A stretch of DNA of 63,988 nucleotides, the filler included, from Perkinsus olseni (lineage: Eukaryota), in assembly GCA_013115125.1 (NCBI GenBank). It is 3 parts of 3 records of this genome, joined end to end, with 100 filler letters (N's around TTAATTAATTAA, not from the genome) between each part and the next. Parts side by side here need not be neighbours in the genome. Positions count along the whole stretch, not along the records: positions 1 to 22,476 come from JABANN010000538.1; 2 more parts are not named here. One strand, written 5' to 3'. Below are positions 1,413 to 4,490 of this stretch, in pieces (the first letter of the stretch is position 1; the number at the start of each line of letters is the position of its first letter). The notes under the pieces were generated by a model. That model was not told where the DNA came from. It saw only the letters and a list, made by a program, of their open reading frames with translations, and made no database searches. The position numbers and the translations under genes are program-made.

Positions 1413-4400
1413 TCATAGCGATCCAGCCTCAGACTCCTTGGCTGAGGTAAACTCCGCGCCTTCCGAATCGTCAGCTAAATCTTCTTTCTTGTCCCCGGGC
1501 TCCGGCTCCTTCTCCTCTGCTTTCATACCATCTTTCTCCGAATTTGTATCGCTCGGGCGCGCGTCCCCACTTTCATCAGGCTTGGCCGCGGAAGCTGGTG
1601 AACTGTCGTTTTCTGACGCAGTGGGCTCTAAAAATGCAACATGACGATAACGATCCCGCGACCTCAACCATGGTATCCCCGAATACTACCCTGCTTAGCT
1701 GTATTCGACGTCGGAGCGCCAGCGTTCGCTCTTGCAAGAACTGCGGCCTTCAGCTCAGCAGCCTGACCGAAATAACATCTACCACGATCGCCAATCGTGA
1801 AACACCGCGGCCACCTCGTCCGACTTGAGAACATTCGCGAAAATTTCAGATTTCCAAATGCCAAATATTTTACATTGACTAAAAAATATCTAGAATATCC
1901 CGGAACACATTAAAAATGATCTCCCGGTGACTCGGGAGGAAAAATTTTACAGAATCAGCCAGCAGCGTTTCCCCTCGGTGCCCTACTACCGCTTGCGCCG
2001 CCGCTTCCTTGTTGGTCTTCTCGTCGCGAACCCGTTTCGCCAAAACCGTGATCAGCTCAGTCACTTGCTCCGTGACTTGCTCCACACTCTCACGATCTCC
2101 ATGCAGACTCACCTGAAAATTACAAAGGAACGACGCATGCCGGGATCGAACCCAGGAGTCCTGGGCCAGGACCTCTACTACCATCGGAGCAGCAGTATCC
2201 GTAGACACTCGTAGTAGCACCCCTCGGCATCCTTTTCTTGCAGCCATCTCCCCAACCGCCACGTCAGGGTCACTGGTCATGCCGGAGTTAACTAACTCCT
2301 TCCAGGTTACACCCGTGGCTAAAAAATAGGGAAAAAATTAAACCGAAAACATACCTAGCGGAAAGGCTCGTTCATGTTTGAAAATTTGAATCTACTTTCT
2401 GAATTTTCCAGATGCAATTTTCTGCAATTTTTGCAAGCGAATTCTTCATCCGAACGGAAAATTCTCCACGATTTCGGGAAAACAGATGAAACAAGCATCC
2501 GTAACCGCCTTGCGCCGCAGAATAAAATCAGCACGAAACGCTTTCAAAAAGAAACAACCGTTTCCGGCGAAGGTCCCCGGATCGATCCCTGCCTCCTCCA
2601 TTTTATTACCCTGCAGCAACCCTTCAATATACAGCCTCCTGGTGACGTTCATCGAACGGTACGCCGCAATCTGCTCCCTCCCCTCAGCCGTACGGAGAAC
2701 CGTGCACAAAACACCATCGAAAAGATTCCTTCCAAACGCCGTGCGAATATGCTGAAAACAAGGAAGTGCGTTGAGGAAATGCAAGATTGCAAGATTCCCA
2801 CCTTGGCGTCTGAGTTAGTCTTCGGGACCAAGCCCACACCATTGATGGCCAGAATCGTGTCCCCTTGTTGGAGATGCTGCTGGCCCGGGAAGGGACTTAT
2901 ATATAAAACCAAATACCCGCGGGAAGTCGACTGAAAATGCAACCTGTGCGATTCGAACCCACGACCATTCCATACCTGCAGATCCAGTCCACAAACGAGC
3001 TCGCTCGGTCGGCCCGGATCTGACAACGTTGAGAAAGTTCAAGATTGCAAGAAATCAAGAACCATTACTTTCTTCCGGTACGACAACCCTCTGATCATAC
3101 TTCGTGACTTCGGACCTCGGAACCACTCGCAAGGGCACCTATTTCGTGGCGCGTGAAAAAATCATAAAAAATCCCAAATTTTTTCTATCGTAATTTTTGA
3201 TCGACGAACTCACATTGATTATTCGATTAGCGATGGAGGTCGAGCTGCCCGTGAAGCTTTGCTGAGGGGCCTGAAATAGGAAAAAAGAAATAAAACGACA
3301 CCTGCCGGGTTCGAACCCACGACCATTCGAACCTGATCATTCTTCCTTAACGTATTAAACAAATTCTGCTCCATCTCCGCCACTGTCATCCGCTGCCCTT
3401 TGCTCTGTCCTCCACTATTCCCATACGCCGCTTGCTGCTGTTGCTGGCCAGACGCTTGTCCAGTCGAAGCTGACAATACACAAGTCCTGAGCGATTTTTC
3501 GCGCGCCACGAAATTACCACCCTGCGACGGTCCCCCTGCCTCCGCCTTGTGTGCGTCAAGGAACTTTCTCAGAGCATCGAGTAAATCCGATACCGTCGGC
3601 TCGCTCTGACCACGTCCTGAACCACCAACAACTCCATGCAAGTAGCGCGCGCCCAGACGATCGATTATACCTTGCTCTTCTTTACGTTGTTGTTGATGTT
3701 GCGTCGCTCCGCCTGAATTCTGCTGAGCGGCATTCGTCTGGTTCCGATTGATCGAAGCCTGCAGGGCCGTCAACTGGACCACCAGTTCGCGCTGAAGACG
3801 CAGGTTCGATCCCCGGCGACGGTACTTTTTACTACCATTAAAGAAGCGTTATCTCTCTTCTGTTGCTGCTGCTTCCCCCGATCGTTCGCCTCGAGCCTCG
3901 CGATCAGAGATTGAACTTCCGAAACCGCCCGACTGGACTCGGTCGGCACGTGCGTCAGAGATCCCCCAGACTTCGGAAGTCGTCCTCCCGCCTGCGCCGC
4001 ATACGCCGCGAAGGGGTCACGGGCAGGAGGGTGTCCCAGATCCAGGCGAGCTTGGCCAGAACGAGACCTGAAAAAATGACATCCGCGGGGTTCGAACCGC
4101 CGCCCTAATATTACAGTTGGGACTGTGCGAGTGCGGCCACGTCGTTCGGGGAGAATCGCGGCCGACCCGCGGGCGCCCGCGTTGGAGCTGCCGGGGGAGC
4201 GGACTCCGTAGGCGGCGGAAAAATGCCACTCAGGCCCTGTGGAGTGCTTAGCGGCGCGGTCTGCGGCCCTGTCATCAACCGAAAGGTCCCCGGATCAGAT
4301 CCCCCCTATTGAATATTACCCGTCGAATTAGGATTATTATCGCTGGTCAGCCTGAAAGCCGCCATTAAATTATCACCAAGCCGATTAGCATCATCAGCAT

Positions 4401-4490
4401 TGCCATACAACCTGTCAAAAAAGGCGGAGCGAAGCAAAATCAATTTCGTTTATCTCCGTCCCAGCCGCCGCTCTTGGTGACATCTCAGAT
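1413..4490 (-). CDS. Long multi-exon protein: Pro/Gln-rich N-terminal half, PDZ-like segment, acidic C-terminal tail
   Basis: Frame-preserving GT-AG introns traced at 4269-4319, 4068-4114, 3792-3835, ~3470-3520, 3271-3332, 3139-3213, 3020-3068, 2931-2975, 2752-2801, 2541-2609 and 2113-2172. Spliced peptide CGLDLQSTSRGYLVLYISPFPGQQHLQQGDTILAINGVGL...HIRTAF resembles a PDZ fold (GD.IL.ING). Both ends uncertain. Confidence 0.6.

Follow-up and report, generated by a model that had tools for sequence, protein, structure and literature searches.

Short repeats in the introns of a Perkinsus olseni gene: a cassette descended from the 3' end of tRNA genes and a possible introner-like origin of the introns

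The locus and its transcripts

We analysed 63,988 nucleotides (nt) of Perkinsus olseni DNA (NCBI GenBank assembly GCA_013115125.1; this whole stretch is hereafter called the window), in which an intron-rich gene on the minus strand (1260-6281, the host gene) carries short motifs of a few recurrent families in most of its introns, the commonest being a piece of a transfer RNA (tRNA) gene. The window comprises three separate contigs, as follows from the two identical linkers (N44-TTAATTAATTA-N44) at 22477-22576 and 45042-45141, and its DNA is eukaryotic, with many short GT-AG introns. Splicing was judged from contigs of four RNA runs aligned to the window. Among the joints listed for these contigs at least 14 are of GT-AG or CT-AC type, including 1628-1689, 4066/8-4112/4, 4730-4779, 4831-5407, 5498-5550 and 5652/4-5701/3.

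The first-pass annotation of this DNA had guessed a lineage adjacent to dinoflagellates, and two observations bear this out. Loose ends of the RNA contigs read TCTTGGCTCA ahead of position 13157 (plus-strand gene) and its reverse complement behind position 1182 (minus-strand gene); this sequence is how the Perkinsus spliced leader, ACCGTAGCCATCTTGGCTCAAG, ends (PMC3101222), and both positions are thus trans-splice acceptors. Moreover, a single-exon open reading frame (ORF; 14149-14967, minus strand) matches two P. olseni proteins at 96% and 90% identity and a P. chesapeaki protein at 73%.

Structure of the host gene

1260-6281, minus strand: mapped part of the host gene; its coding part ends with the stop codon 1413-1415, and the 3' untranslated region (UTR) reaches to about 1260.

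One RNA contig (X11, record 1; 2917 nt) contains the pieces 1260-1627, 3836-4065, 4113-4267 and 5842-5995, and the gene therefore extends well past 4490, where its start had been placed earlier; the ATG at 4483 falls within a 263-nt intron (4412-4674), and the frame is open to at least 6281. Record positions of the RNA set the exon sums (1132 nt from 3835 down to 1628, and 472-473 nt from 5841 down to 4268), and intron chains were chosen that consist of GT-AG introns, keep the frame open and match these sums. The upstream part of the gene has one clearly best chain. The first downstream chains, with introns limited to 260 nt, were rejected for their implausible extra introns, and the 1132-nt sum is matched exactly with introns of 291 nt (2319-2609) and 227 nt (1763-1989). 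Removal of the 20 introns below 5995 yields a single frame of 786 codons that ends at the stop codon, and this frame carries on upstream through exons 6046-6160 and 6206-6281, past two further introns. In total, 22 GT-AG introns (median 52 nt) were traced from 6205 to 1628, with 21 internal exons (median 103 nt); at least six of the 22 are supported by RNA joints among those listed, four more by exon edges, and the remainder by frame and length sum. The putative protein has LRR-like and PDZ-like stretches, recognized by eye only.

The motifs were found to belong to four named kinds: a cassette of about 40 nt resembling the 3' end of a tRNA gene, the motifs TTTCGTGGCGCG and CAAGATTGCAAGA, and the palindromic GCACGCATGCGC. 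Cassette copies were scored with a sequence-only profile, R1 (expectation values, E, are given below; training copies of R1 match by construction). The introns, all on the minus strand, are as follows.

6161-6205, 45 nt: filled by a sense cassette that begins 4 nt past GT and ends at AG; R1 6163-6200, E 2.9e-8 (training copy); frame open across.
5996-6045, 50 nt: sense cassette; R1 6002-6039, E 2e-8; exon edge 5995 in RNA; register 4/5 nt.
5785-5841, 57 nt: antisense cassette with the tRNA 3' end at the donor; R1 5810-5847 (plus strand); exon edge 5842 in RNA; member of the best chain for the 472-nt exon sum.
5654-5703, 50 nt: palindromic GCACGCATGCGC; RNA joint in 4 of 4 runs.
5498-5550, 53 nt: doubtful decayed cassette only (R1 E 2.1, not significant); RNA joint in 4 of 4 runs.
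4831-5407, 577 nt: antisense cassette at 4987-5023 (R1 E 5.4e-5) and further repeats at 4857-4888 and 5217-5244 (families D18 and D20); RNA joint in 4 of 4 runs.
4730-4779, 50 nt: GCACGCATGCGCG motif; RNA joint in 4 of 4 runs.
4412-4674, 263 nt: TTTCGTGGCGCG twice, in opposite orientations, with GCTTCGCTCCGC and a T-run at the 3' end; part of the only high-scoring chain that meets the 472-nt exon sum.
4269-4319, 51 nt: decayed antisense cassette; R1 4281-4317, E 0.033 (non-training copy); exon edge 4267/8 in RNA.
4068-4114, 47 nt: filled by a sense cassette; R1 E 1.4e-7; register 4/2 nt; supported by the adjacency of RNA pieces 3836-4065 and 4113-4267 in the contig record.
3792-3835, 44 nt: antisense cassette whose 3' end lies 4 nt from the donor (GTAGTA, then the T-run complement); R1 E 5.5e-7; exon edge 3836 in RNA.
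3617-3670, 54 nt: no recurrent motif and no 10-mer recurring at four or more places; placed by frame and exon sum.
3470-3517, 48 nt: sense TTTCGTGGCGCG, starting 2 nt past GT.
3271-3332, 62 nt: sense cassette like tRNA-Lys(CUU), from position 44 into the 3' flank; R1 E 7.7e-6; 15/15 identity with tRNA-Lys 44-58, and 75% over 44 nt including the trailer (pair I7).
3139-3213, 75 nt: antisense TTTCGTGGCGCG adjoining the acceptor.
3020-3068, 49 nt: repeat of the CAAGATTGCAAGA family (D4), 73% identical to the reference copy over 33 nt.
2931-2975, 45 nt: filled by a sense tRNA-Lys-like cassette; R1 E 1.2e-6; register 4/0 nt; 15/15 identity with tRNA-Lys 44-58.
2752-2801, 50 nt: reference copy of the CAAGATTGCAAGA family repeat.
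2319-2609, 291 nt: antisense cassette at the 5' end (2569-2606); R1 E 1.3e-7; required by the 1132-nt sum and the open frame.
2113-2181, 69 nt: sense cassette with about 18 extra nt between its variable-loop and T-arm parts; R1 E 7.3e-5.
1763-1989, 227 nt: no named motif and one recurrent 10-mer only; placed by exon sum and open frame.
1628-1689, 62 nt: decayed sense cassette that keeps the tRNA 44-73 geometry and the T-run, detected via its flanks, with three B-box mismatches; RNA joint in 4 of 4 runs.

The cassette (E <0.05) is present in 11 of these introns, TTTCGTGGCGCG in three (one with two copies), CAAGATTGCAAGA in two, the palindromic GCACGCATGCGC in two and a decayed cassette in one, which leaves three without a named motif (5498-5550, 3617-3670 and 1763-1989). 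The first-pass annotation, covering 1413-4490, had reported 11 introns, each with a motif. All 11 exist and carry what was described: the cassette in 4269-4319, 4068-4114, 3792-3835, 3271-3332, 2931-2975, 2113-2181 and at the 5' end of 2319-2609, TTTCGTGGCGCG in 3139-3213 and 3470-3517, and CAAGATTGCAAGA in 2752-2801 and 3020-3068. Its intron 2541-2609 (the probable match) does contain the cassette, but according to the exon sum it is only the start of the 291-nt intron. That region really holds 14 whole introns; those missed are 3617-3670 and 1763-1989, both motif-free, and the RNA-confirmed 1628-1689. The statement that every intron has a motif thus holds for 18 of 22 introns (19 with the decayed cassette) and fails for three.

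The cassette descends from tRNA genes

The cassette consists of a variable loop (AGGTC), a T arm with the B box (GGTTCGAnnCC), a 3' acceptor strand, a discriminator base and an oligo-T terminator; the consensus of 22 copies aligned on the B box reads aaAGGTCCCnGGTTCGAwyCCC, about 10 variable bases, CATTTT. The T-run sets in 11-13 nt past the B-box 11-mer, i.e. at the expected tRNA end (position 73), which identifies the cassette as a tRNA gene from about position 42 to the RNA polymerase III (Pol III) terminator. The only real tRNA gene of the window served for comparison:

24550-24622, plus strand: tRNA-Lys(CTT) gene, found by ARAGORN and scoring 64.7 bits with Rfam.

Positions 44-58 of this gene are matched 15/15 by the two tRNA-Lys-like introns, the second of which (3271-3332) also resembles the gene's 3' flank. 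In the 69-nt intron 2113-2181, the extra nucleotides presumably stand where tRNAs with a long variable arm have theirs.

Profile R1 detects 26 copies at E <0.05 in 64 kb (22 training copies and four new ones), which occur in at least six genes, and it also matches the real tRNA gene. B-box loci with at most one mismatch number 30, against 4.1 in simulations, and the strict B box GGTTCGANNCC occurs at 16 loci of the window against 0.62, 15 of them outside the real tRNA gene (in 100 first-order Markov simulations of the window, as for TTCGTGGCGC, AGATTGCAAG and the GCACGCATGCGC class below).

As functional tRNA genes the cassettes fail: ARAGORN and Rfam found no tRNA in the window besides 24550-24622, and Rfam scans of the window and of 1600-6250 gave no partial tRNA matches to cassettes, which are too short for this. 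Weak Rfam matches to non-tRNA models (microRNA, riboswitch, U4) were far under the gathering score and were taken as chance. Only the two inner pairs of the T stem are kept, the outer three being unpaired in 16, 13 and 15 of 22 copies, and T-stem pairing (58%) shows no excess over shuffled partners (64%). Among 20 introns folded as RNA, none was more stable than its shuffled versions (z -1.04 to +1.90). A tRNA-like or RNA-structural function of the cassettes is not maintained.

These results bear on the possibility that the motifs are RNA splicing signals, acting as branch-site or enhancer elements or as hairpins that join the splice sites, as in Amoebophrya introners. Motif ends do coincide with splice sites, the CAAGATTGCAAGA family has a CTCAAC box about 20 nt from the acceptor, and in sense and antisense copies alike the B-box core stands 14-25 nt ahead of the acceptor, because its TCGA is palindromic. 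However, neither the folding nor the lost T-stem pairing agrees with such signals, which would be expected in one orientation and not, as for three families here, in both; moreover, motifs are missing from 3 or 4 of the 22 introns, and from most introns predicted in other genes, which splice nonetheless. We regard this explanation as highly improbable.

A slight resemblance was also seen between the 5' ends of cassette introns and primers in table 1 of PMC3101222 (spliced-leader RNA intron).

Register with splice sites and a possible origin of the introns

The cassettes keep a register with the splice sites. Seven of 11 sense copies start 3-5 nt past the donor, and six of those seven end 0-5 nt before the acceptor; the 3' end of the intron is formed by the terminator T-run followed by YAG. 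In introns of 45-50 nt, from three different genes, the cassette makes up 76-84% of the length. In seven of nine antisense copies it is the tRNA 3' end that falls near the donor, at offsets of -8 to +7 nt (both exceptions are in long introns), and several of these introns read GTA, T-run complement, acceptor strand. Both orientations are found in the host gene (6 sense, 5 antisense). For TTTCGTGGCGCG, sense copies start 2-11 nt past GT, and antisense copies adjoin the acceptor or lie near it. Similarity between introns thus reaches the intron boundaries, and it is shared by introns of unrelated genes (R1 copies and the CAAGATTGCAAGA family), both features of introners, i.e. repeats that generate introns.

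We tentatively favour, as a real possibility, the view that the motifs are copies from a small number of short interspersed repeat families of Perkinsus non-coding DNA, and that these families generated introns in an introner-like manner. The repeats, their tRNA ancestry, their splice-site register and precise splicing are observed; their insertion as the source of the introns, and its mechanism, we infer. Pieces of the 3' part of tRNA genes would have entered coding sequence, either by insertion or through RNA-mediated copying, and would have been spliced out from the outset by signals that the repeat brings or completes. In short introns the cassette is the intron itself: a sense copy could supply the polypyrimidine tract and acceptor through its T-run and YAG, and an antisense copy has its tRNA 3' end beside the donor (GTA, in many cases with the T-run complement next). 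The TTTCGTGGCGCG and CAAGATTGCAAGA families may behave likewise, and the motifs would need no role besides that of splice-site context.

Alternatively, the same repeats might have landed in introns that already existed and then shrank to minimal size around their splicing signals. Such a history would account for the long introns that hold cassettes away from their ends or near other repeats (4987-5023 in the 577-nt intron), for diverged cassettes and decayed copies, which are not recent, and for the lack of insertion hallmarks described below. It is at odds with intron length, as cassette introns (44-62 nt) are as short as cassette-free ones (48-54 nt) and each insertion would therefore need a matching deletion. 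Nor does it agree with a register fixed to within 1-2 nt at both ends in six introns of three genes; shrinkage would account for sense copies, where the 3' part is kept, but not for antisense copies, where the donor-side piece is kept. We consider this history unlikely.

Several results weigh against the introner-like origin that we favour. The whole case comes from 64 kb of sequence, and within it the density of cassettes is uneven (18, 4 and 4 R1 copies per contig). Transposition hallmarks, which are present in many introner families, though not in all, were absent from the cassettes: in 16 cassette introns, direct repeats indicative of target-site duplications had a mean of 3.88 against 3.71 (standard deviation 0.96) in 300 random GT..AG controls, and terminal inverted repeats a mean match of 3.81 against 3.95. 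The copies also fall short of the high identity that published screens demand, with pairwise values of 0.50 upstream and 0.40 downstream (10 nt on each side) against 0.84 in the B box. To judge by this divergence, the copies are old or of mixed origin. The unevenness between B box and flanks could reflect selection on the B box, and the pattern fits either several source tRNAs or B-box constraint; the contrast is partly circular, because the B box served as search handle. Six copies detected by their flanks alone have 0, 0, 1, 2, 2 and 3 B-box mismatches, a small sample that is suggestive of better B-box conservation. Furthermore, supplementary file 7 of a 2025 introner screen (PMC12130899) records no families in nine Perkinsus assemblies, and among the rows listed in supplementary table 4 of a 2022 screen (PMC9860276) P. 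olseni and P. marinus both have 0. In the latter, similarity was judged over up to 100 nt at each intron end, and such a screen would presumably miss units as short and diverged as these.

Motif families inside and outside introns

The motifs are strongly enriched in the window: TTCGTGGCGC occurs at 14 loci against 0.08 expected, AGATTGCAAG at 6 against 0.14 and the GCACGCATGCGC class at 3 against 0.13. Within the traced gene span all 16 exact motif loci are intronic (intron fraction 0.484; p = 9e-6), and 10-mers recurring at four or more places occupy 86 positions in 2319 nt of intron against 18 in 2259 nt of exon. The earlier idea of a small motif vocabulary concentrated in introns is thus confirmed for the host gene, but the motifs are not specific to introns, being found also in an exon, a 3' UTR, intergenic DNA and a tandem array. 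TTTCGTGGCGCG is present in a coding exon at 10473, with a variant near 10500 (RNA piece 9935-10599), and in intergenic DNA at 1218, 36 nt upstream of the trans-splice acceptor 1182. A CAAGATTGCAAGA-like copy lies in the 3' UTR of the host gene (1380-1412). The array, also counted among the TTTCGTGGCGCG sites, is the following:

13950-14082, no strand assigned: tandem array of about five 21-base-pair (bp) units, each with a TTTCGTGGCGC motif, outside introns (family D5).

Relative to the copy in 2752-2801, members of the CAAGATTGCAAGA family at 11390-11422 and 15948-15980 show 94% and 91% identity over 33 nt, in regions with RNA cover from one run; in families D4 and D8, identity between copies at unrelated loci amounts to 91-94% (33 nt) and 96% (25 nt). 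Contigs of all four runs (4/4) that contain the 31-mer 2768-2798 of the CAAGATTGCAAGA repeat continue with the same foreign flanks on both sides, which implies an identical copy of this 31-mer in another expressed transcript. Metagenome scans with the CAAGATTGCAAGA-family core and the extended TTTCGTGGCGCG motif returned 0 loci.

The first-pass annotation had interpreted the introns as interchangeable slots for motifs spaced about 100-400 bp apart, on a roughly nucleosomal scale, which would suit a chromatin-organising code. This spacing is no more than the sum of exon and intron lengths (medians 103 nt and 52 nt). Intron midpoints (median spacing 203 nt) show no periodicity between 120 and 260 bp: the top Rayleigh R, 0.37, was equalled by 1945 of 2000 permutations, and random placements matched it 1629 times out of 2000. 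That each intron holds one motif, to the exclusion of others, is imposed by size: a motif of 33-41 nt fills an intron of 44-50 nt. The sequence gives no evidence on nucleosomes or chromatin, and it fits repeated inserted elements at least as well; a chromatin code is unsupported here.

In a sharper form of this idea, the motifs might be selected DNA sites with a role in chromatin or gene regulation: B-box half-tDNAs (halves of tRNA genes) serving as extra TFIIIC (ETC) sites, and palindromic TTTCGTGGCGCG and GCACGCATGCGC as factor sites. Introns would merely be the places that a compact genome leaves for such sites. ETC sites that have extended B boxes and act as barriers are known, with 8 counted in yeast and over 1800 in human (PMC12409998). 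The occurrence of both orientations, the palindromic or nearly palindromic motifs, the B-box core that is better conserved than its flanks, and the B box without an A box in all but one copy would suit such sites, as would TTTCGTGGCGCG upstream of the trans-splice acceptor and in the tandem array. Conversely, the copies lack periodic spacing and keep tRNA parts that a B-box site does not need (AGGTC, the acceptor-length spacer, the T-run); their register is tied to splice sites, not to one another; conserved units of 33-41 nt are longer than expected of factor sites; B-box decay is tolerated; and density is very uneven, a rough gene model having a motif in 0 of 40 short introns from four genes of contigs 2 and 3. 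That half-tDNA cassettes (B box, fixed spacer and T-run) and palindromes are selected as sites for TFIIIC-like or other proteins, so that introns would carry a dense gene-body insulator or chromatin code that fragments of tRNA genes had seeded, seems to us distinctly unlikely, more so than the shrinkage of old introns.

How dense the motifs are in the different genes was estimated with a self-trained gene finder, a rough guide that recovered 19 of 21 training introns and 4 of 9 held-out RNA-confirmed ones. In this model 17 of 26 short introns in the host gene region bear motifs, against 2/3, 3/4, 2/11, 0/5, 0/4, 1/11, 0/10 and 0/11 in the other eight genes. The host gene is the extreme case in motif density, not the rule.

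Comparison with known systems

Introners of Micromonas, Aureococcus, fungi, Polarella and Amoebophrya are described as look-alike introns in unrelated genes, whose repeat reaches the intron ends, supplies or recruits splice sites and may occur many times per gene (PMC12130899, PMC9860276, PMC7789003), all of which is seen here as well; in alveolate relatives of Perkinsus, tens of introns in single genes are reported to be introners (PMC12130899, PMC7789003). Unlike them, the Perkinsus units measure 44-62 nt, come in the main family from the 3' end of a tRNA, have no duplications or inverted ends, and show low identity. The cassettes were rejected as miniature inverted-repeat transposable elements, having neither terminal inverted repeats nor target-site duplications beyond those of controls.

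tRNA-derived short interspersed nuclear elements (SINEs) and tRNA pseudogenes resemble the cassettes in their tRNA descent, their B box and their spread over many loci. What SINEs retain is the 5' head of the tRNA with A and B boxes, followed by a body and a tail, with duplications on either flank. The Perkinsus copies, unlike SINEs, keep the 3' third with the terminator and have no tail and no flanking duplications; their span (about 42-73 plus terminator), with an A-like box in a single copy (18517-18593), led us to reject this class too.

ETC sites and tDNA insulators resemble the cassettes in having a B box without an A box, outside a functional tRNA gene and in either orientation (PMC12409998), and the 15 strict loci outside the real tRNA gene qualify as conserved extended B boxes outside a Pol III gene. 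The Perkinsus copies differ in lying within introns of protein genes, at 26 per 64 kb, with acceptor strand and terminator.

In P. marinus, 349 near-identical copies of tRNA-Leu and 116 of tRNA-Gly have been described, together with the tRNA-targeting Dada transposons (PMC3706591, Kojima and Jurka 2013). tRNA genes are thus unusually mobile or amplified in Perkinsus. Dada likewise concerns mobile elements tied to tRNA genes in Perkinsus, but these are DNA transposons of 4.7-11 kilobases (kb) that insert in the A box of tRNA genes, and the accessible part of the paper contains nothing on protein-gene introns or tRNA 3' ends (PMC3706591). Of 104 Perkinsus genes, 69.2% were reported to have introns (39-1622 bp, mostly <100 bp), with motifs unmentioned in the portion available (PMC3101222), and the available part of PMC9399869 holds nothing on Perkinsus intron motifs. 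Open-access full text gave no account of tRNA-like or recurrent motifs in Perkinsus introns, nor of their reading as insertions or B-box sites; the motif strings themselves met only unrelated primer matches in open-access papers.

If the introns did arise from tRNA tails, a Pol III terminator would double as a spliceosomal polypyrimidine tract, and tRNA genes would be a source of new introns, one that we did not find described in open-access full text. Under the same condition, similarity-based introner screens would miss very short, diverged families. Profiles of these families should aid the prediction of tiny Perkinsus introns, at which the simple gene finder did poorly. Should the B boxes instead be maintained, no known set of tRNA-less B-box sites would come near that of Perkinsus in density.

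Cassettes in other genes and further repeats

Cassette introns were also found in other genes of the window:

10602-10647, plus strand, 46 nt: filled by a sense cassette; RNA pieces end at 10599; R1 E 1.7e-7; register 5/0 nt.
13362-13412, plus strand, 51 nt: antisense cassette; RNA joint in 4 of 4 runs; R1 E 0.0021.
17540-18175, minus strand, long intron: antisense cassette 4 nt from the acceptor; RNA joint in 3 of 4 runs; R1 E 4.4e-7.
18517-18593, minus strand, 77 nt: nearly whole decayed tRNA gene; RNA joint in 4 of 4 runs.

The last of these is the only cassette copy with an A-like box (TAGCCTAGCGG), followed by the B box and by a T-run just before the acceptor; its match to the tRNA clan is weak (16.7 bits, E 0.44, below the gathering score), and ARAGORN made no call. 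Exon bases 18595-18601 (7 nt) are fully complementary to 18524-18530, which precede the T-run, in the manner of an acceptor stem split by the exon-intron border; this could be chance (about 1 in 100 by rough estimate).

Two regions (10779-11992 and 15342-17342) have RNA cover from one run only, which was not taken as absence of a gene. In the former (one of four runs) nearly every motif family appears in series at a spacing of 100-200 nt (10993, 11109, 11279, 11408, 11483, 11542, 11665 and 11887), and the region might represent another intron-rich gene similar to the host gene, at low expression.

Further repeats were noted. GCTTCGCTCCGC is present in 7 copies against 0.13 expected (4424, 10883, 11483, 21652, 23864, 40712 and 46012), and in five of the seven a T-run follows 0-6 nt behind, like the end of another Pol III-type gene. 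A GTATCTTAGGTTGA family (800, 7579, 7901, 10993, 15053, 17399 and 28687) is often located at the 5' end of introns, and a CGTATCTTGCA family (7377, 11109, 11279, 11542, 13293 and 17010) coincides with an RNA-confirmed acceptor at 13293-13303; the two are partly complementary (GTATCTT / AAGATAC). A 20-nt palindrome, AAATCGATCGCGCGATCGATTT, perfect or near-perfect, lies at 5217-5244 in the 577-nt intron and at 12509-12536. From the array 13950-14082, three units (63 nt) are missing in an RNA contig of run X7, which suggests copy-number variation of the 21-bp unit. The trans-splice acceptor at 1182 follows the RNA end of the preceding gene (about 1260) at a distance of only about 80 nt. Finally, the ORF 44378-45041, cut by a contig end, specifies a protein rich in cysteine that contains tandem repeats some 17 residues long (...CPAMNKCPYMAAKEGCCC...).

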